NCBI GenBank assembly: GCA_017395085.1
Contig: JAFPWF010000017.1
Span: forward strand, 1 to 64,000
DNA length: 64,000 bases
Source: Oscillospiraceae bacterium
GTDB taxonomy: Bacteria; Bacillota; Clostridia; Oscillospirales; Oscillospiraceae
Reading direction: 5' to 3'
The notes under the pieces are model-generated. The model was not told the origin of the DNA, did not search any database, and saw only the letters and a program-made list of their open reading frames with translations. Of the stretch, positions 1,966-56,570 are shown piece after piece. Position numbers and translations under genes: made by a program. The number at the start of each line of letters is the position of its first letter. The first letter of the stretch is position 1.

Positions 1966-2073
1966 ATGCGGCACTACGAAGTCTTCACCATAGTAGCCCG
2001 TTACTACCAGTATTCTTAAACCTGTCATTGCGAGCCAGCCCGCAGGCTGGTGTGGCAATCCGTTTCTATTCCT

Positions 2074-3585: not shown

Positions 3586-3996
3586 TCAGCCTGTGTAGGC
3601 GTCCTCTGCCGTGTTTGTGAAATTTTGCCTCGCCAGCCACTCCCGCTCCTCTTCGTTTTCGGGGATGTCGATGCGCTCGATTTTGAAAATGACCGGCCTT
3701 GTGCCGTCATTGCAGCAGGCGATCATCATCCGGTCGTCGTTGGTCCAGCCCTGCATGATGGATCCGCCCTGAAGAGCCGTGTATACATATCTGCTGACGG
3801 CATCCCAGGCTTCCCCGCAGAACTTTCCATTCATCAGATGATAGAAATCATCCTGCGTCGGAGTACGCTTCAGCAGGAAGGTGTCGCCCGGCTTGAAGAA
3901 CGGGCAGGGGCCGGATTTCGGATCGGCCAGGTATTTCTCCTGCAGATCCGGAAAACACTTTGTCTCCAGTACGGTTATCCTGCATTCATGTTTCAT
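3586..3996 (-). CDS. hypothetical protein co-transcribed with the radical SAM gene
   Basis: 136-aa ORF. Its ATG overlaps the upstream stop (ATGA coupling) and it has a good coding pattern. Confidence 0.45.
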   Translation of the reverse strand: MKHECRITVLETKCFPDLQEKYLADPKSGPCPFFKPGDTFLLKRTPTQDDFYHLMNGKFCGEAWDAVSRYVYTALQGGSIMQGWTNDDRMMIACCNDGTRPVIFKIERIDIPENEEEREWLARQNFTNTAEDAYTG

Positions 3997-4877
3997 GTTT
4001 CTTTTCCCCTCTTCGCTGACTTAGTGATCTCCTCATGATAGAAGTAATTGCACACCACAGGCGGCTCACCGAAGTGCGCACGATGCTGGTCGTCGTCGCG
4101 GATATACAGCATGCCTTCCTTTGCTGTGTACTCCCTGATCTTCTGATCCAGATCCGTCCAGTAGGCGCGGCTTTTCTTCGTGTAGATCTCACGGTACAGC
4201 TCGTCCAATTCCGGATGATGCTTGTGAATCCAATCGAGGATGCGCTTCCTGTAGTCCCCGCGCAGGTTCAGGTTCTCCAGCCATACGAGGTTGCACTGAC
4301 CCTTTGCCCGCTCGATGATCTCGATCGGGTCCGTGATGCCGGGGAAGATCGGCGAGATGAAGCATGTGGACTGGATACCCGCTTCATAGAACTGACGCAT
4401 GGCCTCCAGCCTCCGCTCAATGCTGACCGCCCGGTCCATCTCTTTTCGGAAGCCCTCGTCCAGCGTGTTGATGGACCAGGATACGTGGGCGCTGGGAAAC
4501 TGCCTGATCAGGTCGAGATCCCGCAGGATCAGGTCGGACTTCGTGGAGATGCTGATGCTGATCCCGGTGTCCAGCAACTGTTCCAGCAGGGCGCGGGTTC
4601 GGCCGTACTTTGCCTCCAGCGGCTGATAGGGGTCGGTGACCGAGCAGAAAAAAGCTTCCTTCCCGGCATACTTCCCAGGCTTATGGATCTCCGGCCAGAC
4701 CTTGACATCCACGAACTCTCCCCAGGGCTCCGGGTGGTTGGTAAAGCGCTTCATGAACGATGCGTAGCAGTATTTGCAGGCATGTGTGCAGCCCACATAG
4801 GGATTGACAGCGTAATCCGACACCGGCAGATTCGTCTTTGTCATGATATCCTTGACTTCGATTTCTTTGATAACCAT
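3993..4877 (-). CDS. radical SAM protein, spore-photoproduct-lyase/'DNA repair photolyase' (COG1533-like) family
   Basis: N-terminal NPYVGCTHACKYCYA contains the CxxxCxxC radical-SAM cluster motif in the context typical of SplB-like enzymes. Length 294 aa. Confidence 0.65.
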   Translation of the reverse strand: MVIKEIEVKDIMTKTNLPVSDYAVNPYVGCTHACKYCYASFMKRFTNHPEPWGEFVDVKVWPEIHKPGKYAGKEAFFCSVTDPYQPLEAKYGRTRALLEQLLDTGISISISTKSDLILRDLDLIRQFPSAHVSWSINTLDEGFRKEMDRAVSIERRLEAMRQFYEAGIQSTCFISPIFPGITDPIEIIERAKGQCNLVWLENLNLRGDYRKRILDWIHKHHPELDELYREIYTKKSRAYWTDLDQKIREYTAKEGMLYIRDDDQHRAHFGEPPVVCNYFYHEEITKSAKRGKET

Positions 4878-5759: not shown

Positions 5760-7076
5760 ATGCCATCTATTACTTTTGAAACTGAAGCCGCAAATTACGA
5801 GGCTTCCGCCATCGCCCTCCGCTCGCTGACAAAGGAATACACCAAGCTCAACCGGGTCATCGTGCAGACCGAGAAGCAGCTTTTGAAGTTCGACGAGATC
5901 AACCGCCTCGTCGCTTATGCCGACAAACCCGCCTCAGCCGGCAGGACGTCCTCCGGTCGCAGCAGTTCCTCCAAGTCAGCCTCAAAGACTACCACGCCCA
6001 AGACGACAACCGGCACCGGCTCCGGGGAGAAAAAGCCCTACATGCCCTCCACGCGTGACACTTCCGCCTCGCTGCCGCTGCACCTCGCCATCAAGGACAT
6101 CTTCTTCGAGTGGGGCGACCTCAACTGGGAGGTCATCCTCATGAAGCTGATTGCCGGCGTGAACGCCATCGGCCTCGGGGTGATCGGCCTGGTCGCAGCG
6201 GGGCCCGCAGGCCTTGCCCTCGGCCTCACGGCGGGGCTCCTGTTCAGCATCCTTGCGGACGCCACCATCTTCAACTTTGACGGAAAGGTCCAGCCGGAGG
6301 AACTGCGCAAGGCGCTCTACGCGCTGCTGCCCGTGGCGGGGGCGGGGGTCGGCCTCATCGCCGGCGGGCCCGCCGGTGCGCTCATCGGGCTTGCGGTCGG
6401 CACCTTCCTGAGCCTGAAGCTCATCGGGCTCGACTGGAGCGAAGCCGAGCGGCAGCTTACGCAGTTCTTCACCGACCTGCACGACTTCTTCGACCTGCGC
6501 TTTCAGAGCGTCAGCAGGTTCTTCCATGAGAGCATCGACGGCCTCAAAACCTGGTGGTCAAACCTCAGCTTCCGGGGCTTCCACCTCAGCCTGCCGCACC
6601 TGCATGTACAGTGGGAGATGTTGAACGCCAATTCCGCGCTGGCCCGCTTCCTCGGCATCAGCGCCGTGCCGCACCTCAGCGTGCAGTGGTACGCGAGAGG
6701 CGGCATCGTGAACGGCGCCACCCTCATCGGCGCGGGGGAACAGGGGAAGGAGGCCGTCATCCCGCTGGAAAGGCATACCGAGTGGATCCGCCTGGTGGCG
6801 AGCGAGCTCCGCGCGCAGCTGGAGGCCCTCGGCCCCTCGCACACCTGGGCGCTCTATCCTCTGCCGGCGGCCGCAACCGGTTCCCTCATTCCGCCTTCCG
6901 CCCTGCAAAGCGAAAGCCGCCCATCTCTGGACGGCCTTGCCGATGCGATTGTCAGCGCAATCTCCACGCTGCAGGCGGTTTCTCCCGAGCCCGTGATCCG
7001 CGTCTACCTCGACGGAAAGCAGCTCTCCGACGCGGTCACCAGGTACCAGCGCCGGGACGCGAGAGCATCAGGCTGA
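5760..7076 (+). CDS. tail tape-measure-like protein
   Basis: N-terminal coiled coil, a Ser/Thr/Lys-rich linker, and a Gly-rich hydrophobic segment (GLGVIGLVAAGPAGLALGLTAGLL) typical of tape-measure proteins. At 438 aa it is short for that family. Confidence 0.5.
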   Translation: MPSITFETEAANYEASAIALRSLTKEYTKLNRVIVQTEKQLLKFDEINRLVAYADKPASAGRTSSGRSSSSKSASKTTTPKTTTGTGSGEKKPYMPSTRDTSASLPLHLAIKDIFFEWGDLNWEVILMKLIAGVNAIGLGVIGLVAAGPAGLALGLTAGLLFSILADATIFNFDGKVQPEELRKALYALLPVAGAGVGLIAGGPAGALIGLAVGTFLSLKLIGLDWSEAERQLTQFFTDLHDFFDLRFQSVSRFFHESIDGLKTWWSNLSFRGFHLSLPHLHVQWEMLNANSALARFLGISAVPHLSVQWYARGGIVNGATLIGAGEQGKEAVIPLERHTEWIRLVASELRAQLEALGPSHTWALYPLPAAATGSLIPPSALQSESRPSLDGLADAIVSAISTLQAVSPEPVIRVYLDGKQLSDAVTRYQRRDARASG

Positions 7077-7337
7077 TCGTCTGCCGAAGTATCCCGGGTT
7101 CACTTCTCCGTAAGTGCTGTGGATGTCTTTCAGCTCAAACAGCAGGTACGGGTCGCTTGCAAAATAGCTTCCAAGTCTGCAGCCTTGCATCGTGACGGAT
7201 CCGTCCCTGTCGACGGTAAAGATACGCAGCGTGTTTTCCGTTCTGCCGTCCTGATTCGTCAGGATGTATTCCTCCCGGTCTACCAGATAGTATAGCACTC
7301 TGGTGCTGGGCTTCAGTTTATAGTCAAGTTCTTTCAT
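7068..7337 (-). CDS. small hypothetical protein (antisense)
   Basis: 89-aa ORF between tail genes. It overlaps the tape-measure gene end by 9 nt. Confidence 0.25.
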   Translation of the reverse strand: MKELDYKLKPSTRVLYYLVDREEYILTNQDGRTENTLRIFTVDRDGSVTMQGCRLGSYFASDPYLLFELKDIHSTYGEVNPGYFGRRSA

Positions 7338-7363
7338 CTTTGGTCTCCAGTCTGTGAGGTATT

Positions 7364-7735
7364 ATGGCAAACTTTGTTTTCACCGTGAATAACGTCAATC
7401 TTCTGCCGTATATCGTCGAGGACGGGCTCAAATGGACCCGCTTCGACGTCGAGGCGCCGGACACCGGGCGTACGCTGGACGGAGTGATGCACCGGGGCAG
7501 GGTGGCCGTCAAGGTCCGGCTGGACGTGACCTGCCGCCCCCTCACGGCCGCGGAGACAGCCACCGTCCTGAACGCCATCGCGCCGGAGTTCGTCACTGTC
7601 CGCTACGAGGACCCGATGTTTGGATCCGTCACCAGGACGATGTACTCCAACAATATCCCGGCTCTCTGCGCCACCGTCTATCCTGACGGCACCGCCCGCT
7701 GGGAGGGGCTGGCTTTCCCATTGATCGAGCGCTGA
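7364..7735 (+). CDS. phage tail component (hypothetical)
   Basis: 123-aa ORF in the tail module. Confidence 0.4.
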   Translation: MANFVFTVNNVNLLPYIVEDGLKWTRFDVEAPDTGRTLDGVMHRGRVAVKVRLDVTCRPLTAAETATVLNAIAPEFVTVRYEDPMFGSVTRTMYSNNIPALCATVYPDGTARWEGLAFPLIER

Positions 7736-9458: not shown

Positions 9459-9721
9459 TTATGCTTCAATTAAAAACCGCGCAGGGTTTCACCCTGCCTA
9501 TTACATGGATCGGAGTCAGCGACTTTGACGGATCCCTCCGCTTCGAGACCCCGGAGACGGACCTTGCGACCCTGTTCTCTGTCTTCAGCGATCCTTCGCA
9601 CACATCCGCCCTGACCCGCATCTTCGATGAAGACGAAAAGACCTTCTCCGGCTTTACCGCCTTCAAAGGCATAGAAAAAATGGCCGGAGGCGCCATTGTA
9701 ATCCGTCTTCTTCCTGGTTAA
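9449..9721 (+). CDS. hypothetical phage protein
   Basis: 90-aa ORF overlapping the previous stop (ATGA-type coupling). Confidence 0.4.
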   Translation: MGIIMLQLKTAQGFTLPITWIGVSDFDGSLRFETPETDLATLFSVFSDPSHTSALTRIFDEDEKTFSGFTAFKGIEKMAGGAIVIRLLPG

Positions 9722-9845
9722 TCGAATAAGAGCCCAGTGTAACGGGTCTTATTCGAAAAAGGACGAGCAGCGTAGCGACTGAGCTTTCCTGACGCTTCAG
9801 GGAAGCGAATGGATACGAAGCTTGTGAGGACGCGGGAACGGGAAC
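9721..9845 (+). repeat. intergenic structured element, copy 4
   Basis: Same family (gagcccagtgtaacgggtctt...gagctttcctgacgcttcagggaagcgaatggatacgaagcttgtgaggacg). Confidence 0.6.
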
Positions 9846-9890
9846 TACGGTGATCCGGCTGATGCCCGCATAATCTTTTTGGAGGACAAA

Positions 9891-10352
9891 ATGAAAGAAT
9901 TCTGGACGATGATTCAAACCGCGTTTTTCGGCCTGGGCGCATGGCTCGGCTATTTCCTCGGCGGCTGCGACGGCCTGCTCTATGCCTTGGTGATCTTTGT
10001 CGCCGTCGACTACGTCACCGGCGTGATGTGCGCCGTGGCGGACAAGAAGCTCAGCTCCGCGGTGGGCTTCAAAGGCATCTGCCGCAAGGTGCTCATCTTC
10101 CTGCTGGTCGGACTTGCGCATATTCTGGATACGCAGATCCTGCATGAAACCGGCATTCTCCGCACCGCCGTCATCTTTTTCTTCCTGTCCAACGACGGGC
10201 TGAGCATCCTGGAGAACGCCGCGCACCTAGGCCTACCCATCCCGCAGGCGCTGAAGGATGTGCTGGAGCAGCTGCACAACCGAGCGGAGAAATCCGGTGA
10301 GCCGGAAACGGTTATTGCTGATTATGTAGGAGAACACGAATCCCATGAGTGA
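9891..10352 (+). CDS. phage holin (holin_4-like family)
   Basis: Small protein with transmembrane segments (FFGLGAWLGYFLGG..., LIFLLVGLAHIL). It overlaps the downstream lysin gene. Confidence 0.65.
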   Translation: MKEFWTMIQTAFFGLGAWLGYFLGGCDGLLYALVIFVAVDYVTGVMCAVADKKLSSAVGFKGICRKVLIFLLVGLAHILDTQILHETGILRTAVIFFFLSNDGLSILENAAHLGLPIPQALKDVLEQLHNRAEKSGEPETVIADYVGEHESHE

Positions 10353-11516: not shown

Positions 11517-11708
11517 ATGGCTGAATCAAAGTTTCAGATCACACCGAAAAAATACATTGGAGAATCGTCAGTGGTTTCCCTGCGCATGCCGAAGGACATG
11601 CTGCGGGACATTGATGAGATTGCGGCAAAAACAGGGCGTACGAGGAACGAGTTTATGCTGATGAGCTTGGAATTTGCCTTGGATCATCTTGAGATTGAAG
11701 AGAAATAA
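11517..11708 (+). CDS. ribbon-helix-helix (CopG/Arc-like) DNA-binding protein
   Basis: 63 aa. A beta-strand-like stretch followed by two helices (SLRMPKDMLRDIDEIAAKTGRTRNEFMLMSLEFAL). Confidence 0.45.
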   Translation: MAESKFQITPKKYIGESSVVSLRMPKDMLRDIDEIAAKTGRTRNEFMLMSLEFALDHLEIEEK

Positions 11709-11726
11709 CACGGGGAGTTGAGTATC

Positions 11727-14429
11727 ATGCCCATCATCAAATGCAAAATGTGCGGCGGCGATATAGACCTCGCTGCGGATAAGACTTTTGGAACCTGCGA
11801 ATACTGCGGCTCCACCATGACGCTGCCAAAGGTGTCGGACGAACAGAAGGCGGCCGCATTCAACCGCGGCAACCACTTCCGGAGGATCGGCGAGTTTGAC
11901 AAAGCTCTTGCCGTCTATGAGCGCATCGTCGCGGAGGACGACACCGATGCGGAGGCGCACTGGTGCTGCGCCCTCTGCCGCTTCGGCATCGAGTATGTGG
12001 AGGATCCCGCCACCTATGAATGGATGCCGACCTGCCACCGTGCAAGCTTCGACAGCTTCCTGGAGGATGTGGACTACCTTGCCGCGATAGAGAATTCAGA
12101 CGGTATAACGCGCCGTCAGTACCAGAAGGATGCCGCGAAGATTGCAGAGGTGCAGCGCGGCATTCTGGCGACCTCCCAGAACACGGAGCCGTATGACGTA
12201 TTTATCAGCTACAAGGAACTGGATGAAAACGGCAGCCGTACCCGCGACAGTATTTTGGCGCAGGAAATCTACTACCGGCTGACGGAAAAGGGCTGGCGGG
12301 TGTTCTTCTCACGCATATCCCTGGAGGACGTGCCCGGCACGCAGTATGAGCCGTACATCTTTGCTGCTCTGAATAGTGCAAAGGTGATGATTGTTGTTGG
12401 AACCAGCGCAGAAAATCTCAATGCGGTGTGGGTCAAGAACGAGTGGAGCCGCTTCCTATCCATGATGCGCAAGGATCGCTCGAAACTCCTGATTCCCTGC
12501 TACCGCGACATGGATCCTTATGATCTTCCGGAGCAGCTCGCGGTGCTGATGAGCTATGACATGGGGAAGATCGGTTTTGTGCAGGATCTGATCCGCGGCG
12601 TGGATAAAGTGTTGACCGCGGAGAAGAAGGAGCCGGTTAAAGAGACGGTGAAAGAAACCGTTGTCGTCCAGCAGCCCGGCGGCGGGCCGAATGTTACGGC
12701 GCTTCTCAAACGCGGCCAGCAGGCGCTTGAGGACAGCGAATGGGACAAGGCCAGAGAATACTATGATCAGGTTCTCAACATGGATGCTGAGAACGCAGAG
12801 GCGTTCCTCGGTCTGTTCCTGGCAGGCGAAAAGTGTGAAGAAGAGAACGCTTATATAGAGAGGGCCTGCACGAAGAAAGGCGCGACAGAGACCCTGAATG
12901 TTCCGTCCGCGGCTGACCGCATCAATGAGAATGCTGCAAAGTACAAGCTCGACCATTACCTATTCGATGGCGACATTCGAAAACTGTTCGATTATGATTT
13001 ACAATATCCAACCACACTCCGGACGCAAAAGCTTGTCGCAGAGCAGGAAAAAGCAAGCTTTCAGAATGATAGGAATCTCAACCGGGCATTTCGCTATGCA
13101 AAGGGCGATGTGGCAGCGAGACTGAACGCATTCAAAACGCAGTTGTTTGCCGGGTTGGACCGTAACGTCACACAAGCAGAGGAACAGGAAGAAGCAGCTA
13201 GAGAAGAGAAGAAAGCTGCATACGAGGTGTTCCTGGACAATGCGGAAAATCTTGCACAGGAGAAAAACGAGCAGGCACAGGCGAGGAAAGAAGAAGATTA
13301 TCAGGCACTTTGCCGCCGTATTTCAGAAGCGAAAACGATAAAAGAATTTGACGTTGCAAAATATAAGCTTTTCCCCTACTTCAATGACTATAAGGACAGT
13401 GCGGAGCAGTACAAGCGCATAGAAGAAGGAATTGCAAGGTTGGAAAAAGAGGCTGCAGAAGAAGCGGAAGCGGAACGCCTGCGCAAGGAAGTCGAAGCAA
13501 AAGCCGTCGCGGAAGAAGCTGAGCGTCAGGAGGAGCAGAAGCGTATTGCAGCAGAAAAGGCAGATAAGAAACGTAAAAAAACGATCGCAACTAACACGCT
13601 GATCATTGTTGCCTGCATTGTGTTTGTAACCGTGTTGAAGTTCGTGATCATTCCTAACCAGAGACTCAATAAATCAGTGGCAATGATTGATGCTGGCGAT
13701 TACAAGGCGGCATACCTTCTTCTAGATGGTATGGATTATAAAAATAGCAAGGAGCTTCAGGAAAGCATAAAATTGCAATACGAAAAAGAATGCATTTCTG
13801 AAGCGCAGGTCCGTTCATATGTTCCTTTTGGTTCTTATGAACAGGATAACGATTCCGAAAACGGGAAAGAAGACATAGAGTGGCTTGTGCTAGCAAAGAA
13901 AGATGATAGAATCCTAGTCATTAGCAGATATGCTCTAGACTGCCAGCGATTCAACACTTCAGCGACAAGTGTTACATGGGAAACCTGTTCAGTGCGTAAA
14001 TGGCTAAATGAAACATTTCTGAACAACGCTTTTTCCGAGGAAGAGCGTGCCATGATTCCCAATATGATTGTCACTGCGGACAATAACCCTGACTACAGCA
14101 TAAGTCCAGGAAAAAGCACGACGGATCAGATGTTCCTGTTTAGCATTAGAGAAGCGAATAACTATTTCAATACAAATAATGCACGGCAGTGTCAGGGAAC
14201 TCCTTACTGCTTTGCACAGGGGGCCTATAAAGACAACAGTGGTAATTGTTGGTGGTGGTTGCGGACCCCTGGATTTGATACCGAACACGCTGCGATCGTT
14301 CGTAGTGACGGCTCCATCTATTCCACCTCGGATATTAACGGGGATGGCTCTTTATATTCCAGCGGTTATGGAGTCACTCTCAAAGATGTAGCCGTCCGTC
14401 CTGCGATGTGGATAGATTTGACGACATAA
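11727..14429 (+). CDS. membrane-anchored TIR-domain protein with an N-terminal zinc ribbon + TPR module and a C-terminal extracytoplasmic domain
   Basis: CKMCGG..CEYCGS zinc ribbon. TIR motifs (YDVFISYKELD..., WVKNEWSRF with conserved Glu). Long coiled coil. Transmembrane helix (TLIIVACIVFVTVLKFVII). DUF6273-like C-terminus. Confidence 0.7.
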   Translation: MPIIKCKMCGGDIDLAADKTFGTCEYCGSTMTLPKVSDEQKAAAFNRGNHFRRIGEFDKALAVYERIVAEDDTDAEAHWCCALCRFGIEYVEDPATYEWMPTCHRASFDSFLEDVDYLAAIENSDGITRRQYQKDAAKIAEVQRGILATSQNTEPYDVFISYKELDENGSRTRDSILAQEIYYRLTEKGWRVFFSRISLEDVPGTQYEPYIFAALNSAKVMIVVGTSAENLNAVWVKNEWSRFLSMMRKDRSKLLIPCYRDMDPYDLPEQLAVLMSYDMGKIGFVQDLIRGVDKVLTAEKKEPVKETVKETVVVQQPGGGPNVTALLKRGQQALEDSEWDKAREYYDQVLNMDAENAEAFLGLFLAGEKCEEENAYIERACTKKGATETLNVPSAADRINENAAKYKLDHYLFDGDIRKLFDYDLQYPTTLRTQKLVAEQEKASFQNDRNLNRAFRYAKGDVAARLNAFKTQLFAGLDRNVTQAEEQEEAAREEKKAAYEVFLDNAENLAQEKNEQAQARKEEDYQALCRRISEAKTIKEFDVAKYKLFPYFNDYKDSAEQYKRIEEGIARLEKEAAEEAEAERLRKEVEAKAVAEEAERQEEQKRIAAEKADKKRKKTIATNTLIIVACIVFVTVLKFVIIPNQRLNKSVAMIDAGDYKAAYLLLDGMDYKNSKELQESIKLQYEKECISEAQVRSYVPFGSYEQDNDSENGKEDIEWLVLAKKDDRILVISRYALDCQRFNTSATSVTWETCSVRKWLNETFLNNAFSEEERAMIPNMIVTADNNPDYSISPGKSTTDQMFLFSIREANNYFNTNNARQCQGTPYCFAQGAYKDNSGNCWWWLRTPGFDTEHAAIVRSDGSIYSTSDINGDGSLYSSGYGVTLKDVAVRPAMWIDLTT

Positions 14430-14772
14430 TGTTCCAGTTTTCTGACTTCTGAACGAAATTGTTATGTAGGATAAGGTGTTCCTTCTGAGTCAACTTGAGG
14501 CAGAGAAATACTTTTCTTCTGACTATGAACGAAGGTGCGAGCCGACTAAATACGCTGAAGAGATGGGCTGTAGGACTCTTGTGTGGTAGAGCGACTGGTG
14601 GCTGCGAATACGAGGTATCGACTCGGTGTGGATTATATGGTCCACGTATGACGGCGAAGTAGGTGTTGCAGGAGCGATAGCCAATGCTGAAGGGGCTGTG
14701 GTGAGACCGATTTTATTGGTAGATTTTGAATCTTGATTCTTACAGGAATGGGAAAGAAAAGGAGTGCGTGCC

Positions 14773-15693
14773 ATGGATACTATGGCGTTGTCATCAGTTG
14801 AATTAAGAAAATACAATCCAAGTACTCCAGATGAATTTTACAAATTGGCCGCTAGGACAGCAAGCTTCTATTATCACACACGATTAGAGACGGCTATAAA
14901 GATTCTTTCTGGGGAAGAAATAGTGTTTTTTATCAGCCCGATAAGCAACATGAATGATGAAAACGAAATAATTCTTCACGAAAGAGAACAAAATTGCACC
15001 TATATACTTTGCTTTTCGCATATACAAACTGAAAGCATTCCCATGTGGTATTTGTATAGTGGGATAACAGGAGAGGGATCACGAATAGGATTCACGCCAG
15101 CAAGAATGAGAGATATTCTTGAAAGCGCTATTGAAGTATACCCTGTCTATCGGAGGCAGATAGATACTTCCAAATCGTTACACATCGACGATGACTACGC
15201 TGTTGAGTATGGTTGGGTATTCTATCGCAATAAAGAGGACAATTCTATCAAGTATAAAGGAGACAAGTGTATTATACGTGACTCAATGCATTCATTTGAA
15301 AAAGGCAATTTTTTTGTCAAAGACAGTGAATGGAGTTATGAAAAAGAATTTCGTATCGTATTTAAACTAAATCGCACCTTACCAGAGCAAATAGCACTCG
15401 TGCTAAATAAAAAGAAGATGATGGCAGATGATGGATTGAAAGTGACACTATCGCCAAGGATTAGTGAGGCAGATATGGAAATGATAAAAGCCAAAATGGG
15501 TTTACCGGCTAAGCACATTTCAACAAGTAAGATAAAAGCCAAAATGGATTTGCTTAGCCGAAATCGGCAGAGTATAGTGGAGCATTTTCCGGAGGTCGTT
15601 TCTGGACTAAATATGGATGAACTAGAGTCAATCATCAAGCAAGTTGAAGCCGAACTCATTGTGCAGAAAGAAAAGGAGTTAGCCCATGTCTAA
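14773..15693 (+). CDS. DUF2971-like hypothetical protein
   Basis: Low-GC gene. The SPISNMNDENE segment resembles the DUF2971 'FNDPxE' motif. Confidence 0.35.
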   Translation: MDTMALSSVELRKYNPSTPDEFYKLAARTASFYYHTRLETAIKILSGEEIVFFISPISNMNDENEIILHEREQNCTYILCFSHIQTESIPMWYLYSGITGEGSRIGFTPARMRDILESAIEVYPVYRRQIDTSKSLHIDDDYAVEYGWVFYRNKEDNSIKYKGDKCIIRDSMHSFEKGNFFVKDSEWSYEKEFRIVFKLNRTLPEQIALVLNKKKMMADDGLKVTLSPRISEADMEMIKAKMGLPAKHISTSKIKAKMDLLSRNRQSIVEHFPEVVSGLNMDELESIIKQVEAELIVQKEKELAHV

Positions 15694-17521
15694 ATTTGTA
15701 ATCGAATGTCCCAATTGTGGGAAATATGCGGAAGCGCGAACCGGCTTTTTCGCCCGCAAGAAGCTCGACTGTTCCTGCGGTTACACCATCAATGTCCGCA
15801 CAGATAAGCTTACTGGTCGGGAGTGTCCGCACTGTGGCAACATGGTCGTTTTCGACCAAAGTGAAGGTGAAAGGGCAAAATGTCCCGTTTGCGGTGAGCC
15901 GATCAACACCATGACCGAGCAGGACAAGATGGCAGAGTTTTCCTGCGCCCAGTGCGGCGTGCGCCTGCGCACGAATAAGAGCGCGGAGAAGTACGTCTGC
16001 CCGGTCTGCGACTTTGAGAATTTCATTCCCGAGCGGCTCATGAGCGAGCAGATCAAGAAGGACGGTCTCGCCAGCATCATCAAGTACGAGGGCGATAACG
16101 ACACCCTGGTCTGGAAGCATCCCATCGAGGACTTCAACTACGGCTCGCAGCTCATCGTCCATGAGAGCCAGGAGGCGATCTTCTTCCGGGACGGCCAGGC
16201 GCTTGATCTTTTCGGACCGGGCCGCTACACGCTGGAGACGCAGCAGCTCCCGCTCCTGGAGAAGGTTTATAAGCTTCCCACCGACACCGAGGGCACCTTC
16301 CACAGCGAAGTATACTTTATCAACAAGGCCGTGCAGATGGCCATCAAGTGGGGCACGCCCGAAAAGGTGCGCTTCATCGATCCGCTGACCGGCGTTCCGC
16401 TGGAACTCGGCGCGTCCGGGGAACTGAACCTGATGGTCTCCGACTCCCGCAGGCTGCTCCTGAAGCTGGTCGGAACCATGAAGGGCATTGCCTGGGGCGA
16501 CAGTGAGGGTTTCACCAAGTCCGTACAGGCCTCTTTTCGCCCCCTGATCACCACGGCGGTCAAGGCAAACCTCTCCAGCGTCATCAAGGACAACGCCATC
16601 GACCTGTTGGAAGTGGACGAGAAGCTGGAGATGATCTCCGAACACTTGCGTGAGAAACTGCTTCCCGGCTTTGAGGAATACGGTCTTACGATCCCGCAGT
16701 TTTATGTGACGAGCATCGTCCTGCCAGAGAACGATCCCAACTTCAAGCGCATCCGCGAACTGCACACCATCACCCTGCAGGCGAGAGCGTACCAGGCAGA
16801 AGCGACCGTCCTGACGGCGAAGGCGCAGAGCGAGGCGCAGTACCGCACGGCACAGGAGCAGAGCAAGGCAGCCATCGAGGCTGCCCGCCGCGGCGCCGTG
16901 CTGGAGCAGCAGACGACCGAGACCGAGATTGCCCGCCGTGAAGCGGAGCGGAGGGTTATTGCCGCCCAGGCGGATGCACAGGCGCAGCGCATGGCCGGTC
17001 TGACCGAAGCGGAAATCATGGCCGCCAAGGGTTACAGCCAGAAGGATGTACTGCAGGCCGAAGTGCAGAAAGCCTATGCCGAAGGCATCGGCAACATGGG
17101 ACCGGCCATCTCCGGCGGCGGCGGAAGCGGTATCCTTGGGGATATGCTCGGCCTCGGGGTCGGCATGGCTGCGGCAAGCACTGTCGCGCCGCAGATCGGA
17201 GAGATGATGCAGGGCTTTCGGGCTCCCGGGGCAGCAGCACCTGTTGCCGCGTCAGGCGGCTGGGACTGCCCGGGCTGCGGTACCAGGAATATCCAGAGCC
17301 GCTTCTGTCCGGAATGCGGCGCAAAGAAACCGTCGCCTGCGGCAGCACCCGCAACGGACTTTTGGGATTGCCCCTCCTGTGGAACTAAGGGCATCACGAG
17401 TAAGTTTTGCCCCGAGTGCGGTGCCAGAAGGCCTTCTCTGACCTGGACCTGCCCGGACTGCGGCACTGCGGATATCAGGAGCAAATTCTGCCCCAACTGC
17501 GGCAGAAAAAAGGATGAATAA
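15686..17521 (+). CDS. SPFH/band-7 (flotillin-like) protein with N-terminal zinc ribbons, a coiled coil and three C-terminal zinc-ribbon repeats
   Basis: Multiple CxxC pairs at the N-terminus. SPFH-like core. Ala/Gln-rich coiled coil. Three repeats of W(D/T)CPxCGT..I.S(R/K)FCPECGA at the C-terminus. Confidence 0.6.
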   Translation: MSKFVIECPNCGKYAEARTGFFARKKLDCSCGYTINVRTDKLTGRECPHCGNMVVFDQSEGERAKCPVCGEPINTMTEQDKMAEFSCAQCGVRLRTNKSAEKYVCPVCDFENFIPERLMSEQIKKDGLASIIKYEGDNDTLVWKHPIEDFNYGSQLIVHESQEAIFFRDGQALDLFGPGRYTLETQQLPLLEKVYKLPTDTEGTFHSEVYFINKAVQMAIKWGTPEKVRFIDPLTGVPLELGASGELNLMVSDSRRLLLKLVGTMKGIAWGDSEGFTKSVQASFRPLITTAVKANLSSVIKDNAIDLLEVDEKLEMISEHLREKLLPGFEEYGLTIPQFYVTSIVLPENDPNFKRIRELHTITLQARAYQAEATVLTAKAQSEAQYRTAQEQSKAAIEAARRGAVLEQQTTETEIARREAERRVIAAQADAQAQRMAGLTEAEIMAAKGYSQKDVLQAEVQKAYAEGIGNMGPAISGGGGSGILGDMLGLGVGMAAASTVAPQIGEMMQGFRAPGAAAPVAASGGWDCPGCGTRNIQSRFCPECGAKKPSPAAAPATDFWDCPSCGTKGITSKFCPECGARRPSLTWTCPDCGTADIRSKFCPNCGRKKDE

Positions 17522-17562
17522 ACTTGCAGGGGAATTGATAATAAGAGAAGGGATGGTTGAGC

Positions 17563-18261
17563 ATGGCGAACTGCGCTAATTGCGGAAGAAGAATTACAGC
17601 TTTTAACTCTGATCCTCACTTTAATTTCAGCGACCAAACGTTGTGTCAGAACTGTTCGGACACTTTTAATTCGTTGCTGATGGATAATAAAATGGGTTGG
17701 AACAGTGTAGGTATCACAAGAAGATTTATTAGACAGAATAAAGACAGACTCAGATTAAATGATTCAGGTATTGAGTTTCTGCTTTCGTATGCTGACTACA
17801 TCCAAAAAAACAATCCGGATGGGGCGGAAGATGAAGAAGATGAGGAAAAGTTAGAGGAGGAAGAACTTAAAAGAAAAGAGGAAGACTTGGAAAAAAGAAT
17901 CGCTCTGTCCAAGATGCTGATCTCTTCCGGGTTCAATTTTGAAGGATATCGTATCGTAAAATATTCGGGTTATATTTCGGGTGACGATGCCATTCAGATT
18001 CCCCGAAGTGGTATATTTGATCGGGGAAGGAATGGCGAAAACCTGACGGATGCTCTTGTTAAGATCAGGAGAAGAGCGCTGATCGAATTAAAAGAAGCTG
18101 CGTATGATCTCGGCTGCAATGCGGTAATCGGCGTAGACTTTGACTATCTTACGCTGGATCCGGAAACGGCGTCACTGACAGGCGGAACTGTCTACGAACC
18201 GTATGTCATCTGCGTTACCGCAAACGGCAACGCTGTGGTGATCGAGAAAATCGAGGATTAA
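17563..18261 (+). CDS. zinc-ribbon protein with a C-terminal YbjQ/UPF0145-like domain
   Basis: CANCGRR..CQNC at the N-terminus. The C-terminal GYRIVKYSGYISGD...LGCNAVIGVDFDY matches the UPF0145 pattern. Confidence 0.5.
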   Translation: MANCANCGRRITAFNSDPHFNFSDQTLCQNCSDTFNSLLMDNKMGWNSVGITRRFIRQNKDRLRLNDSGIEFLLSYADYIQKNNPDGAEDEEDEEKLEEEELKRKEEDLEKRIALSKMLISSGFNFEGYRIVKYSGYISGDDAIQIPRSGIFDRGRNGENLTDALVKIRRRALIELKEAAYDLGCNAVIGVDFDYLTLDPETASLTGGTVYEPYVICVTANGNAVVIEKIED

Positions 18262-20093: not shown

Positions 20094-20240
20094 GAACTCT
20101 CGAAAGAGAGCGGTAAGTAAACAGCCAGCCTATACGAGATGCGCGAGGGACAAGCCCGTTGACCGCACGGCAACCTCCCGGAGAGAAAGGTGCCAAAGCT
20201 TGAACGATAGGTATAATCCAGTCCCGCGACTGGTATTTTT
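20094..20240 (+). ncRNA. candidate small structured RNA / cis-regulatory leader (unidentified class)
   Basis: Extended -10 promoter TGgTATAAT (20079-20087). A ~145-nt GC-rich region with several internal helices. It ends in an intrinsic terminator (ccagtc-ccgc-gactgg + TATTTTT) about 55 nt before the next start codon. Confidence 0.35.
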
Positions 20241-47037: not shown

Positions 47038-49026
47038 CTATTCCTTCCGGTACGTCCGGCAGGTGTAACCGTCGGCGCGCAGCTTCAGCCCGGGCAGCCA
47101 GTCCGGCGTCTGCCCCATCAGCCGACAGATTTCCTCCACGTCGTCCGATTCGATGATCACTTCGTCATGCACATGCCCGACGACCGGGTACCGCCACAGG
47201 CGTTTCATGGCATCCGCCAGCAGGTCGCGGCTGATGGCCTGGACAATGTTTTCCGTCAGCTTCGGCCCGTAGGTTTCGATGCGGCTCCAGTGCCTGGCGG
47301 CGTCGAGACCGTCATAGGTGATGACCTCGCTGCCGTAACGGCCTTCCTCGATTTTGGCTCTCAGATAGCAGAGCTCCCGTCCGGAGGGAATGGCAACCCG
47401 CAGCATCTGATTCTTATACTCAAAGCTAAGCGGTCCGGCCACGGCAGTCATCCTCTCGGTGACGGCCTGTTTTGCGGCGCGGTCCACGTCCCACCAGAAT
47501 TTCACGATCCTGGGGTTTGCCTCCCGCCAGGAACTGACCAGTTCGTCCAGTTCCTCTTCCGGCGCGCCCATCTCGAGAGCGCCCATGCTTTTCAGCGCCC
47601 CGGTGCTGCCGCCGTAACCCAGCGCCAGTTCGGCGATCTTGCCTTTCTGGCGGAGCTCTCCGTTGATGCCGTGCTTTACCACGGGTACGCCAAACATTTT
47701 GCTGGCGCTTGCGGCGTATATGTCTCCGCCCTCATCGAATACCCGTTCCCTCCAGCGTTCACCGGCAAGGTGCGCGAGCACTCTGGCTTCAATGGCGCTG
47801 AAATCCGCCACTGTGAATTTCTTCCCACTGCTGGGAATGAATGCGGTTCTCACCAGTTCGGAGAGTACGGCAGGTACTTCGCCGTAGAGGAGCGCTACGG
47901 TTTCCTCATCGCCGGCCTTTACCAGCGCCCTCGCCACATCCAGATCCGGGAGTTTGTTCTGCGGCAGGTTTTGCAGCTGGACCATCCGCCCGGCCCAGCG
48001 GCCGCTTCTGCTTGCTCCGTAGAATTGGAACATGCCGCGGCATCTGCCGTCGCTGCAGACGCAGTTCAGCATCGCCTCGTATTTCCGTACGCTGCTTTTG
48101 GCTGCCTGCAGCCGCAGCGAGAGGACTTCCTGTATCAGAGGGTCTGTGCTTTCTTTCATCAGGGCTTTGGCTTCCTTCCTGCCGAGGCTGTCCGCTTTCA
48201 GTCCGCGGCCCTGCAGCCACTCTTTCAGTTGAAGGACTGAGTTCGGGTTTTCCAGCCCCGTCAGGTCCCTCATGCATCTCGTGAGTTTCGCCCTGGCGCC
48301 GGCGTCCATCTTCACGGCCTGCTGCACGAAGTCCGTGTCGATCCGGATGCCCCGGTCGTTAATTTCCTGATCGAGGGCATATTCCTCCCAGACCCGGTCG
48401 GGAACGGGGAAGTTCTTCAGCTTTTCCTGTATCTGCAGTTCCGCATCCACGTCCCGCCTGTTGTAGGCAAGGAAGCGCTCCCATTCCAGCGGCGCATCCG
48501 CCGGACGCGTAAAACGCCGTTCCGCAAACAGCGTCTGCTGGCTGTCATTGCCTTCAGCCTCCTTCGTCATGGTCGGTACGCAGAACTTCCGGATCAGCTC
48601 TTTCCCTTCGCTCAGTTTCTGCTTTTCCAGCCCGAGCACGGCGCCGGTCATTGCCAGCCCCGGGGGCAGCCCGTTGTAGGCGCTCAGCACCATGCTGCAT
48701 CGCCAACCGGCGGGGTCGAGGAAGGGGAGACCGTGGTAGCCCGGTACCAGTTCCGGTTTGATTCTGTTCAGCCAGCGGCTCAGGCAGACGCGCTCGAAGC
48801 CTGCGTTGTAAGCCCATTTCAGCACGCGTCCGTCATTCAGCGCTTCCAGGATCTCTTCCGGCGGCAGCTGTCCGCCGGCCACGTCGTATACAAGCGGCTC
48901 CGCGCCGTCCACGCTGACGCCGAAGAGCAGGATGTCGAAATCCGGGTCTTCTGCGTAGCGGTACACGCCGCATTTGGAGATGTCCGCCCCGCTGCGGGTT
49001 TCCAGGTCAATGCTCAGGGTTTTCAT
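47038..49026 (-). CDS. family-A DNA polymerase with an N-terminal 3'-5' exonuclease domain (phage type)
   Basis: Exo I motif LSIDLETRS. Pol A palm motifs (e.g. [28 protein letters not shown]). Confidence 0.7.
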
Positions 49027-49523
49027 GCCGTGCACCATCCGTATCTCTTCCCGTTCCGGATGCGGTTGATCATGCTGATATCCACGTCAAAGTTCCAGGC
49101 AAGCTGCCTGTCCGTGTGCCCTGCGAGCATGCCGAAGCGGATGCCTTCTACATCCGCAAGGTCCAGTTTGCAGCGCTTCCCGCCCTGAAGGTAGATGTCG
49201 TGGTTGTTTTCCGCGGCATTGCCAAAGCGCAGGTTTTCGGGCCGGTTGTCCGTGGGATCTCCGTTGTTGTGCAGCACCATCATGCCTTCCGGGCAGGGGC
49301 CGAGAAAAGCGGCGGCGACCATGCGGTGCACCTGCTCCTCTTTGTTGTGGTGAATGTAAAATGACAGATGTCCGCTCCGGTCGCGCACCCGGGGCCGGAT
49401 GATGTTGTTTTCATCCAGTCTCCTGCGGCGTCCGCAGTCATGGCAGCGGATTCTTCCCGCCGTACTGGCCTGCAGGATGCCTTCGTAACCGGGAACATCT
49501 TTCCATGTTTCAGGTTCCATCAT
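49023..49523 (-). CDS. HNH homing-type endonuclease
   Basis: HNNGDPTDNRPENLRFG..NNH is an HNH_3-type motif. 166 aa. Confidence 0.6.
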   Translation of the reverse strand: MMEPETWKDVPGYEGILQASTAGRIRCHDCGRRRRLDENNIIRPRVRDRSGHLSFYIHHNKEEQVHRMVAAAFLGPCPEGMMVLHNNGDPTDNRPENLRFGNAAENNHDIYLQGGKRCKLDLADVEGIRFGMLAGHTDRQLAWNFDVDISMINRIRNGKRYGWCTA

Positions 49524-49654
49524 GTTCTCCCAAATAAAAGATTCTCCTACTCACTCCTGCCGCACACAGGCGGCAGGAGCTTTCGGCGTTTCAGACGTTA
49601 TCGGGGCGGGGGAGAAAGGAGAAAGCCCCTTGCCCCGTCCGGTTAAATCCGTAT

Positions 49655-49790
49655 CCCTCGTCCCCTCGAAGAAGAGCCCAACGCAGTGGGTCTTCATCGA
49701 AAAAGGACGAGCAGCGTAGTGACTGAGCTTTCCCGTTACGCCGGGGAAGCGAATGGATACGCAGCTTGTGAGGACGTCATCCGAGAAAGT
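49655..49790 (+). repeat. intergenic structured element, copy 5 (in the replication module, antisense to flanking genes)
   Basis: Same conserved core. Hairpins carry compensatory variants (cccaac..gtggg; gctttcccg..cggggaagc). Confidence 0.6.
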
Positions 49791-54663: not shown

Positions 54664-54993
54664 ATGCTCGAAAGATTTATTGAACAGAAGCTAGTCGCCC
54701 GTGTTCGGCGCGAAGGCGGGCTTTGCCCCAAGTTTGTCAGCCCCGGCTCAGACGGCTGGCCGGATCGTCTGGTATTGATGCCCGGCGGAAAGATTGCCTT
54801 TGTCGAACTCAAGGCTACGGGTGTAAAGCCACGTCCGCTGCAGCTGCAGCGTCACGCACAGCTGAGGGATCTTGGCTTCTCCGTATTTGTCGTGGACGAT
54901 CCCGCGCAGATCTCTGATGTGATAGCCCTGCTCACAGCGAAAAACCGCCGCAAAAAAACAGCTGCCGAGCCCAATTCGGAAGCCCGTCCATGA
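54664..54993 (+). CDS. VRR-NUC domain nuclease
   Basis: GWPDRLVLMPGGKIAFVELKATG matches the VRR-NUC PD-(D/E)XK core. Confidence 0.55.
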   Translation: MLERFIEQKLVARVRREGGLCPKFVSPGSDGWPDRLVLMPGGKIAFVELKATGVKPRPLQLQRHAQLRDLGFSVFVVDDPAQISDVIALLTAKNRRKKTAAEPNSEARP

Positions 54994-56570
54994 GTATTCC
55001 GGTTCAGCGCATCTCGCACCCTTCGGGCACTCGGGTCGCATCACCGGCACAAAAACCGATAGAATTCATTCCTCACGCTTATCAGCAGTTTGCCATTGAC
55101 TTCATCCTGTCTCATCCTGTTTCCGCAGTTCTTTTGGATATGGGCCTTGGCAAATCGGTGATTTGCCTGACCGCTATTGAGCAGCTCATCTATGACCGGT
55201 TTGAAGTGAATCATGTGCTGGTTGTCGCGCCGCTGCGTGTGGCGACCATGACGTGGCCGAATGAGCTCCGCAAATGGGTTCACTTATCTTCGCTCACATT
55301 TTCTGTTGCCACTGGAACTCCGTCGGAGCGCCGTGCGGCCATTCTGGAGCGCTCGGATATCACCATCATCAACCGTGAGAATCTGTCTTGGCTTGTCTCC
55401 TCCGGCCTTTCCCTCGACTATGACATGCTGGTCATTGACGAGCTCAGCAGTTTCAAAAACCATCAGTCCCAGCGCTTCAAGGCCTTCATGAAGCTCAGGC
55501 CGCATGCCGCCCGGGTGGTCGGCCTCACCGGTACGCCGTCCTCGAACGGCCTCATGGATCTGTTCGCAGAGTACCGCTGCCTGGACATGGGTCAGCGTCT
55601 CGGGAGGTTTATCGGGCAGTACCGGGAGCTGTACTTTACCCCGGACCGCCGGAACGGGAACATCATCTATTCCTACCGGCCCCGTCCGGGTGCACAGGAA
55701 CAGATCTACAACAGGATCCGGGATATTACCGTATCCATGAGGGCAATGGATCATCTTCCCATGCCTGAGCTGATTTTCAACACCTGTCCCGTCCGGTTCT
55801 CCGCTTCCGAGCGGGAACAGTACAACACCCTGCGCGCGGACCTGCTTGTTCCCCTGCAAACCGATGAGTCCGGCAGACACATGATCACCGCCGCCTCGTC
55901 CTCACAAGTTCCGCATCCATTCGCTTCCGCCACTGGAGTGCCGAAAGCTCAGTCGCTCCACTGCTCGTCCTCTTCACGTCAAACCCGCTCCGCTGGGCTT
56001 TGCCGTGATAATACCAGTGTAGTGACTGCGGCAAATGCCGCAGCGCTTTCAAATAAACTCTGTCAGCTTGCCAACGGCTGTGTCTATTCCGATGACGGGA
56101 AAGCGGTTGCGTTCCACTCCCGGAAACTGGACATATTGGAGGATCTCCTTGAATCCGCGACGTCACCGGTTCTGGTGGCTTACTGGTACCGGCATGACCT
56201 TGCCCGCATCAGGGAGCGTCTTTCCTCACTTGGGATCAGCTTTGCCGAGCTGACCACACCTGCTGCAATCCGTGAATGGAATGCAGGGAATCTGCAGGTC
56301 GGCCTGATCCACCCGGCATCCGCCGGCCACGGCCTGAACCTTCAGCAGGGGGGTCATCATCTCATCTGGTACAGCCTGTCATGGTCATTGGAGCTCTATG
56401 AGCAGGTGAATGCGCGTCTGTGGCGGCAGGGGCAGCAGTCCCGTACCGTCATCATCACGCACATCATAGCGGAGGGAACAATTGACGAGCACATCCTCTC
56501 AGCCCTTGCCGCAAAGTCAAGCACACAGAACGCGCTCATCTACGCCGTCCGCGCAGTATTGCCGTCATAG
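54990..56570 (+). CDS. SNF2-family helicase
   Basis: Motif I/II region (LDMGLGKS; LVIDELSSFKN) and a helicase-C-like C-terminus. Confidence 0.6.
   Translation: MSIPVQRISHPSGTRVASPAQKPIEFIPHAYQQFAIDFILSHPVSAVLLDMGLGKSVICLTAIEQLIYDRFEVNHVLVVAPLRVATMTWPNELRKWVHLSSLTFSVATGTPSERRAAILERSDITIINRENLSWLVSSGLSLDYDMLVIDELSSFKNHQSQRFKAFMKLRPHAARVVGLTGTPSSNGLMDLFAEYRCLDMGQRLGRFIGQYRELYFTPDRRNGNIIYSYRPRPGAQEQIYNRIRDITVSMRAMDHLPMPELIFNTCPVRFSASEREQYNTLRADLLVPLQTDESGRHMITAASSSQVPHPFASATGVPKAQSLHCSSSSRQTRSAGLCRDNTSVVTAANAAALSNKLCQLANGCVYSDDGKAVAFHSRKLDILEDLLESATSPVLVAYWYRHDLARIRERLSSLGISFAELTTPAAIREWNAGNLQVGLIHPASAGHGLNLQQGGHHLIWYSLSWSLELYEQVNARLWRQGQQSRTVIITHIIAEGTIDEHILSALAAKSSTQNALIYAVRAVLPS

Follow-up and report, generated by a model that had tools for sequence, protein, structure and literature searches.

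How does a gene come to be followed, beyond its own stop codon and a short non-coding element, by a second version of its own 3' end? The question is raised by a 64,000-nt stretch of DNA from an Oscillospiraceae bacterium (contig JAFPWF010000017.1, positions 1 to 64,000 of the forward strand; hereafter the window), in which a repeat of ~130 nt is present in six copies, four in the late region of a prophage and two in a second prophage-like region. A preliminary description made from the sequence alone had noticed that copies 3 and 4 of this element are followed by short open reading frames (ORFs) echoing the end of the gene in front, and had taken each echo for a decayed copy of that gene end, possibly left by insertion with target duplication, by recombination joining modules of related phages, or by a bypass- or intron-like arrangement. 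Comparison with homologues and with sites lacking the element indicates instead that the echoes are the resident, native tails of the two genes rather than decayed duplicates of the tails in use, and that the in-use tails are rare foreign alleles. We think it reasonably probable (roughly 0.6) that an incoming block, consisting of a foreign tail, its stop codon and the ~130-nt element, displaced the resident tail by homing-like recombination from another phage; at the evolutionary level we hold our account of the echoes with good confidence.

The late prophage region occupies the window from position 1 to ~11,200 and encodes the capsid end, adaptor and connector proteins, the major tail protein, a chaperone, the tape measure and tail proteins, followed by a holin and a CHAP/PG_binding lysin; the second prophage-like region contains a replication module at ~45-59 kb. 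The closest database phages are those of Oscillospiraceae and Acutalibacter, and a megablast search of INPHARED with the prophage returned no close phage. Loci used for comparison are cited below by numbers prefixed L, and clusters of homologous proteins by numbers prefixed P.

Gene ends on either side of copies 3 and 4

For both genes the best non-self match to the C-terminus in the 64-kb window lies, as had been described, after the element. At copy 3 the arrangement is as follows.

1339-1794, + strand: 151-aa gene of the head-tail connector region (phrog_3366), body 1339-1730, ending in TAG
1731-1794, + strand: in-use tail of the 151-aa gene (..ERLQHFEVVTKVASRYYQDR, stop), a foreign allele brought with copy 3
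1795-1965, + strand: element copy 3, made up of a 5' arm, the P2 hairpin, a 3' domain and a GAGGAG Shine-Dalgarno-like end
1966-2019, + strand: echo 3, 17 codons (MRHYEVFTIVARYYQYS, stop), the displaced native 3' end of the 151-aa gene
2074-2442, + strand: downstream 122-aa tail-completion-like gene

The 17-codon ORF at 1966-2019 is present as reported, and the similarity put at about 70% comes to 73% nucleotide identity over 45 columns, an alignment whose score was reached by 1 of 2000 dinucleotide shuffles; aligned globally, the two agree at 35/57. Both halves of the 151-aa C-terminus find their best non-self match, out of ~128,000 six-frame positions, exactly at 1963-2019. The ending YYQYS is shared by 34 of 120 clusters homologous to the 151-aa protein, and 11 have VARYYQYS, a form one codon shorter, as in echo 3, and the echo agrees at 14 of 17 residues with natural tails such as MRHYEVTSKVARYYQYS; the in-use ..YYQDR tail is found in P0001 only. 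A scan of IMG/VR for relatives of the protein yielded one partial locus.

An empty site is provided by L159, which encodes a 90% identical protein (P0003) and in which the gene end overlaps the start of the next gene, as TCATGATG, with no element at the junction; L017 likewise lacks the element there. The window and L159 are 92.1% identical over the gene body up to 1730. From that point the in-use tail (1731-1794) matches the L159 tail at only 33/64 positions (51.6%), whereas echo 3 is colinear with L159 1072-1125 at 44/54 (81.5%), its final 24 nt being identical, and beyond the echo the alignment goes on at 94% into the next genes. Echo 3 is only slightly degraded (a K to I change, and 84% identity against 92-94% for its flanks). 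The TAG at 1792-1794 is the sole stop codon between the 151-aa gene and echo 3, an ORF at 1801-2019 being open in the gene's frame; read-through of this TAG would give a 226-residue fusion, and the open frame is probably a coincidence, as copy 4 and L017 differ in this respect.

The features at copy 4 are these.

9461-9721, + strand: 86-aa gene (..KMAGGAIVIRLLPG, stop), listed as a 90-aa ORF from GTG 9449
9680-9721, + strand: in-use tail of the 86-aa gene, a rare allele travelling with copy 4, its last codons overlapping the modelled 5' arm
9699-9833, + strand: element copy 4, with the P2 hairpin from 9722, right after the TAA stop
9835-9873, + strand: echo 4 (GTGTTVIRLMPA, stop), the displaced native 3' end of the 86-aa gene, with its stop codon at 9871-9873
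9891-10352, + strand: holin gene, placed after echo 4 just as, in empty-site relatives, it comes after the intact gene end

Two details of the earlier account change here. The echo, which had been placed at 9846-9878, lies at 9835-9873, and the upstream gene, given as 90 aa, does exist as an ORF from GTG 9449 but most likely starts at ATG 9461, as in its homologues, which makes it 86 aa. At the DNA level, the likeness between echo 4 and the gene end is not significant (21/39 identical); at the protein level, GTTVIRLMPA-stop and AGTGTTVIRLMPA-stop are the best non-self matches in the window, with z = 5.2 against shuffles. Echo 4 is identical at 12/12 residues to the C-terminus of 10 of 120 homologue clusters, 50 of which contain GTGTTVIRL, and the in-use ..IVIRLLPG-stop ending occurs in only two clusters, P0121 and P0131, both of which carry the element. 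The empty site in L162 reads ..cgtatgGGAACGGGAACAACAGTGATAAGACTGATGCCTGCATAA, spacer, holin, and matches echo 4 together with the spacer downstream of it. Scanning IMG/VR for relatives of the 86-aa protein returned none.

The clusters with the in-use ending allow the block to be followed across three phages. The window, L161 (P0121) and L262 (P0131) share the same in-use tail and element at the same junction, GAGGACG(C/A) joined to GGG(A/T)AC, and each continues into a different echo that is a natural allele: in L161 the echo is GTGTTVIRLLPGGVSN-stop (RLLPGGVSN), overlapping the holin start, and in L262 it is a second nucleotide version of ..RLMPA-stop, followed by the L162-type spacer. Pairwise identity among the three is 74-79% in the gene body, 86-95% in the tail and element, and 62-88% in the echo. 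One block at one junction in front of three resident tails is explained neither by a single insertion followed by descent nor by duplication of the resident target. The block has been exchanged among diverged genomes.

Comparison with empty sites and with the tails of homologues had been suggested in the preliminary description, and we regard its outcome as decisive: L159 and L162 carry the echoes as native gene ends, and both tail variants are found among the 120 clusters of each protein, the echo form being the commoner and the in-use form rare. Against shuffled controls, echo 3 stands out at the DNA level and echo 4 only at the protein level. The word decayed is thus too strong, echo 3 being only slightly degraded and echo 4 an intact native tail; nor is either echo a copy of the gene end in front of it, which is a different, foreign allele.

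The element family and its recurrence

A covariance model built on five window copies gave ~150 significant matches in viral contigs, GTDB genomes and metagenome contigs, a few of these loci being the same contig from two collections; almost all GTDB matches are in metagenome-assembled genomes of Oscillospiraceae, Ruminococcaceae or Clostridiales, often at contig ends. Strong covariation shows the element to be a genuine conserved structure. Across 53 copies, 93.9% of cells are paired in the modelled structure as against 36-45% when the partners are slid, two-sided changes are seen at 33 of 37 pairs, and the window copies fold better than their own shuffles (z = -2.4 to -4.3). Three parts make up the core: a hairpin whose 10-bp stem covaries freely while its loop, AGAGCCCAGCGAAGCGGGTCT, hardly varies; a domain that ACGAGC/GCUUGU closes; and an inner hairpin, GCUUUCG..CGGAAGC. 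Because its G.U and U.G pairs are conserved, the fold is strand-specific. The 3' end is sharp (..CTTGTGAGGACG, or ..GACGAC in other subfamilies), the 20 nt on the 5' side of the first hairpin show no conservation across the family, and no terminal inverted repeats are conserved family-wide. Copy 3 matches the model with 118.8 bits at 1795-1961 (fold z = -3.7) and copy 4 with 133.4 bits at 9699-9830 (fold z = -4.2), the conserved 3' end of the latter, GAGGACG, lying at 9826-9832.

No Rfam 15 model matched the element in searches of the window (gathering thresholds), of 700-2700 (E up to 10) and of seven related loci (E up to 1), and a literature search on miniature inverted-repeat transposable elements in phages turned up no account of it; the family is apparently undescribed and absent from Rfam. 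Pairs of hairpin-only matches (L061, L069) were considered as the ends of a larger transposon and rejected, ordinary host genes lying between them, and gene orientation taken from the longest ORFs was dropped as unreliable in this GC-rich DNA.

The other four copies in the window are as follows.

1204-1334, + strand: element copy 1, a covariance-model match lying cleanly between stop and start codons and providing a Shine-Dalgarno sequence, no echo
2455-2584, + strand: element copy 2, a covariance-model match and clean intergenic insertion, no echo; L159 has a copy here too
49645-49774, + strand: element copy 5, in the second prophage, antisense to its neighbours, between a Gp2.5-like single-stranded DNA-binding protein (SSB) gene and an HNH_3/NUMOD4 endonuclease gene
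55899-56028, - strand: element copy 6, antisense and in frame inside a SNF2-like helicase ORF (54990-56570), which reads through it

Comparison of the two flanks of copies 1 and 2 revealed no echo. In L160 the empty copy-1 site reads TAAacATG, and L017 is likewise empty there. Dense patches of substitution flank copy 1 at 1183-1200 (the last four adaptor codons) and 1339-1350 (codons 2-4 of the 151-aa gene), and overall identity between the window and L160 (1060-1090 compared at copy 1) passes from 86% on the left of copy 1 to 95.8% on the right; in these alignments the patches and the shift in identity resemble co-conversion at a clean insertion. At copy 5, the 5' flank at 49634-49660 (GGTTAAATCCGTATCCC) has AATCCGT and GGTTAA in common with the tail of the 86-aa gene, that is, with the 5' arm of copy 4 (9699-9724), and may have been brought by the element from an earlier site, unless the likeness is a chance one (p ~0.04 against shuffles). 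It was also considered whether the 86-aa tail had left fossils in the 5' arms of copies 1, 2, 3 and 5; this was rejected, the likenesses being not significant against shuffles except for the marginal value at copy 5. The endonuclease gene beside copy 5 is at 49023-49523 on the minus strand, in the order SSB-element-HNH-polA; in L066 the element is at 7034-7162 and an HNH gene at 7160-7681, in the order HNH-element-polA, with one 802-codon antisense ORF spanning the element.

Elsewhere, sense copies between genes provide a Shine-Dalgarno sequence in L107, as copies 1 and 2 do in the window, and an antisense copy lies between terminase and portal genes in L017. In two endolysins, copies in the sense orientation sit in frame within the linker between CHAP and PG_binding (L044 3578-3702, L164 2385-2518), and the ORF reads through them. 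Several contigs hold copies between tRNA genes (L153 3076-3197; L184/L223; L206/L208).

When ~130 copies were scanned for likeness between their two flanks, five further echo cases emerged, three of them chromosomal (L097, L101, L220). A scaffold gene in L017 ends in MNKILRGQ-stop and is echoed by MNRLIRGQ-stop (24/32 nt). A chromosomal gene with a biotinyl domain in L101 ends in GELLMTIKVKD-stop, with an echo ending ..KE-stop (34/36 nt). In L097 the repeat is ~72 nt and near-identical, and the echo's stop codon and the next gene's ATG overlap, an overlap that represents the native arrangement. The tail of nusA in L220, IKPESEA-stop, has the echo IKPESEV-stop; the two copies use different serine codons, AGC and TCT, which points to divergence under coding constraint rather than to decay. 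The fifth case is that of L161 and L262, treated above. In all echo cases the gene is in the sense orientation of the element and the echo starts within a few nt of the element's 3' end, the duplicated lengths being 24, 32, 36, 39, 54 and ~72 nt. None of the ~130 copies showed a mirror-image echo, one repeating the 5' end of a downstream gene, and the remaining flank likenesses were traced to tRNAs, to tandem copies of the element or to a different hairpin repeat.

A proposed incoming tail and its alternatives

Homing-like gene conversion is the favoured mechanism. A break or nick would form in the empty allele a few dozen nt before the stop codon; in the 86-aa gene it would fall near the point between ATG and GGAACGGG. 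Repair would be templated by a genome carrying the block, with the gene body serving as homology on the left and, on the right, either the donor's echo and the sequence downstream of it or end-joining at the element boundary. A variable stretch of the gene end would thus be co-converted, and each recipient's own tail would survive as the echo. The gene stays intact because the block brings a complete replacement tail, and the old tail is a harmless remnant abutting the fixed 3' end of the element (..CTTGTGAGGACG). Where the replacement diverges from the native tail, a nuclease recognizing the native junction would fail to cut the filled allele. The founding tail-element-tail arrangement at a site could result from local duplication, L101 and L097 having a recent look, or from a sloppy join. 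We infer the break as the trigger, the nuclease, and the origin of the first such arrangement. Among the explanations offered in the preliminary description, it is recombination joining phage modules that endures: the echoes match homologue C-termini, empty sites are found in L159, L162, L160 and L017, and the same block is present in three phages.

Several observations weigh against a homing-like displacement. The high identity of the block is in part conservation, since empty alleles also preserve the stretch 9610-9680 and the element is itself under constraint. No donor lineage for the copy-3 tail was found in IMG/VR with a back-translated HFEVVTKVA search. The element has no endonuclease, the only ORF of at least 30 aa in copies 3 and 4 being the frame that continues from the 151-aa gene (p151), and, among the loci collected by the time of the tblastn search, only copy 5 and the L066 copy have an HNH gene beside them, in different orders; a general link between element and HNH gene was rejected on the same search, which found the gene shared by L066 only. 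The six native junction sites have no sequence motif in common. Echoes are found at only ~8 of ~130 copies, and would thus be an occasional outcome and not an obligatory product of movement, and the two copies in L101, which differ at 2/36 nt, would fit a fresh local duplication equally well.

A rival proposal would be generic, sloppy illegitimate recombination, with the echo as an untrimmed remnant at a mosaic joint where the element happens to lie. Phage mosaicism by illegitimate recombination, followed by selection for function, is established, and identity shifts at element sites, as well as the occupation of the same junctions by other mini-elements and morons, fit such an origin. However, the left-hand breakpoint coincides within a few nt with the conserved 3' end of the element in 8 of 8 cases, the three phages share an identical junction position at the 86-aa gene with different right-hand partners, the architecture recurs in bacterial chromosomes (L097, L101, L220), and the mirror-image remnants of downstream genes are missing from the ~130 copies. 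We thus consider this explanation unlikely, although not negligible.

Ordinary transposition with a long target-site duplication, through a staggered cut of 24-72 nt, would make both copies resident sequence that has since diverged. The pairs in L101 (34/36) and L097 (~72 nt) do look like fresh direct duplications around the element, and duplication may be the origin of the first tail-element-tail arrangement at a new site. In its simple form, as first proposed, it does not account for copy 3, where the upstream tail (51.6%) and the echo (81.5%) differ so much in their identity to the empty-site relative as to be different alleles; nor does it account for the three phages, whose upstream copies are 86-95% alike while the echoes follow their own phage lineages, or for the AGC and TCT serine codons of L220, which mark divergence under coding constraint. 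Neither a fixed duplication length nor family-wide terminal inverted repeats are seen, and most copies have no flanking repeat. As a general explanation it is quite improbable.

A bolder proposal, for which we would claim little likelihood, is that Oscillospiraceae and their phages harbour, in this element, a non-autonomous homing element of a new class, which would be structured as RNA or as single-stranded DNA, would have a precisely defined 3' end, and would direct or exploit cleavage of the empty allele. It could possibly act as a guide scaffold taking its specificity from the adjacent echo, in the manner of TnpB, or as a self-processing RNA copied into DNA, and a cleavage-resistant replacement tail would then protect both the element and its host gene.

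Alternatively, the element could mark the 3' end of an RNA, so that a read-through transcript of tail plus element is reverse-transcribed and integrated. Such copying would be in keeping with the fixed 3' end and variable 5' extent, with the sense orientation of every echo case, and with the strand specificity conferred by the conserved G.U and U.G pairs. However, no reverse transcriptase was recognized among the 40 window proteins scanned, a subset of the ORFs of a window that begins within the prophage and covers its right half; copies also lie antisense to genes and in frame within them; and no ribozyme or retroelement RNA model matches. We judge this route very unlikely. Two further candidates are not supported: a diversity-generating retroelement of the variable/template repeat type, in which mismatches would fall at template adenines, as the 16 mismatches at copy 3 have A in the echo at only 2 and in the in-use tail at only 6, and integrase-type rebuilding of 3' ends, as the element is 130 nt, non-coding, and found at many unrelated genes.

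That the echo is an alternative, real C-terminus, reached by splicing, ribosome bypass or TAG read-through, is scarcely credible: at copy 3 the echo is in the gene's frame, with the element open and only TAG 1792-1794 between, and GAGGAG stands 3 nt before the ATG of the echo, a short spacing for ribosome binding, but echo 4 lies in another frame, its stop being 152 nt beyond that of the gene with further stop codons between them, the L017 element is closed by TAG, some copies are antisense, no group I or II intron or ribozyme model matches (Rfam 15; window and seven related loci), the in-use tails are complete, natural-type ends and both tails are ordinary gene ends elsewhere, and the gaps of 113 nt (copy 4) and 171 nt (copy 3) compare with ~50 nt in the bypass of T4 gene 60.

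Mini-elements, neighbours and known systems

The junctions discussed above also contain smaller repeats, two of which are listed here.

1864-1903, + strand: hairpin mini-element of ~39 nt (about 38), nested in copy 3, with the core GACGCGCGGGAAGCGTGCGAC at 1869-1889
2020-2073, + strand: second mini-element of ~55 nt, TGTCATTGCGA-GC hairpin-GTGGCAATCCGT, between the echo-3 stop and the next ATG

The nested hairpin has the form GACGCGCGGGAAGCGTGCGAC..CCAAGCTTG and occupies helix P3 in copy 3 but the P2 loop in L186 (2020-2040), with further occurrences in L049 (7918-7938) and L108 (643-663, 1409-1429); the sister locus L216 is without the insert. It appears to be a mobile mini-element that landed within a mobile element. 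The second mini-element occurs in the window at 765-799 and 2023-2060, just before two ATGs without a Shine-Dalgarno sequence, in L163 (1424-1461, 1763-1797, 2882-2919) and in L164, L165, L021, L033, L066 and L116, the polA region of L066 holding two. It is not at the same junctions in the close relatives L160 and L159, and has therefore also been gained and lost. Beside an element copy in L224 (~4411-4535), and after the 86-aa gene in L166 (1462-1510), stands a third hairpin repeat, GGGGACCACGAAGTGGTGGAGGGG, whose triloop is again of the GNA type.

Among the neighbouring genes, a radical-SAM gene (294 aa) and a 136-aa gene (3586-4877, minus strand) lie inside the tail-gene cluster and look like a moron. 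After the lysin, 11517-18261 encodes a ribbon-helix-helix protein, a 903-aa TPR/TIR/DUF6273 protein, a DUF2971 protein and an SPFH/zinc-ribbon protein, possibly defence genes, and a SAM riboswitch at 20127-20213 is the only Rfam match in the window.

These findings suggest that movement between related phages as a tail-swapping cassette is open to tiny non-coding elements as well as to endonuclease genes, so that a structured non-coding parasite could spread among gut phages without breaking genes; they would also explain, in concrete molecular terms, how some of the mosaic boundaries of gut phage genomes arise. Caution is necessary in annotation, where the last 15-25 residues encoded by such genes may be of foreign origin and the mini-ORFs after elements are relics. 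The family is an abundant, structured one with strong covariation in a dominant gut bacterial group, not represented in Rfam, and the empty and filled alleles described here make questions of its function and mobility directly testable.

Several known systems share parts of this behaviour. In IS200/IS605 systems homing is assisted by TnpB and its guide RNA, and homology-facilitated illegitimate recombination relies on a homology anchor on one side. The likeness to TnpB systems lies in a structured, RNA-like element whose precise 3' end abuts the sequence of the empty allele, and that to the latter process in the one-sided homology anchor; here, however, no TnpB, IscB or Y1 transposase was seen, no motif is shared by the six junctions, and no Rfam guide RNA matches. 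Phage 21 and e14 in icd, like integration into tRNA genes, give a substitute gene end and leave the displaced original on the far side. The element resembles them in supplying a gene end with the original left beyond, but in those cases an entire prophage or island, equipped with an integrase, enters a single fixed target, in contrast to the many genes and gene-specific tails seen here.

Small palindromic repeats (REP/BIME, Rickettsia palindromic elements, mitochondrial GC clusters and double-hairpin elements) are multi-copy, intergenic hairpins of 35-150 nt; nested insertions occur among them, the Rickettsia elements are sometimes in frame within genes, and their mobility is mostly unexplained. 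In-frame copies are found here as well (copy 6 in the helicase, and the endolysin linkers of L044 and L164), a functional resemblance only. The present family differs from the palindromic repeats in its three-helix structure, strong covariation and highly conserved loops, and has no apparent sequence relation to them; a covarying three-helix structure suggests a function beyond that of being a hairpin. To our knowledge, carriage of a replacement tail has not been described for any of these families.

The seg and mob homing endonuclease genes of T-even phages come closer in their mode of spread: they insert at gene junctions and move by break repair between related phages, flanking markers are co-converted, and resistant flanking polymorphisms travel with the element. 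Spread between related phages, a gene-junction site and co-travelling flanks are found here too, but the block contains no endonuclease gene, and a displaced duplicate tail is not standard for seg and mob.

The same architecture as at copies 3 and 4 is that of the mobile ORFs (mORFs) of fungal mitochondria, in which a foreign C-terminal has been inserted together with the mORF and the native C*-terminal is left downstream, as in atp6 of Allomyces macrogynus and atp6, atp9, cox2 and nad3 of Glomus sp. (PMC3630166). In Glomus atp6, the native tail is 91% and the inserted one 63.5% identical to relatives (PMC3630166), and at copy 3 it is likewise the native tail that resembles relatives and the inserted one that does not (81.5% vs 51.6%). 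mORFs encode a LAGLIDADG or GIY-YIG endonuclease that drives their mobility (PMC3630166), whereas the element described here is ~130 nt, non-coding and structured, has no endonuclease ORF, and inhabits phages and bacterial chromosomes. The relation is one of resemblance in working and not of membership in a family.

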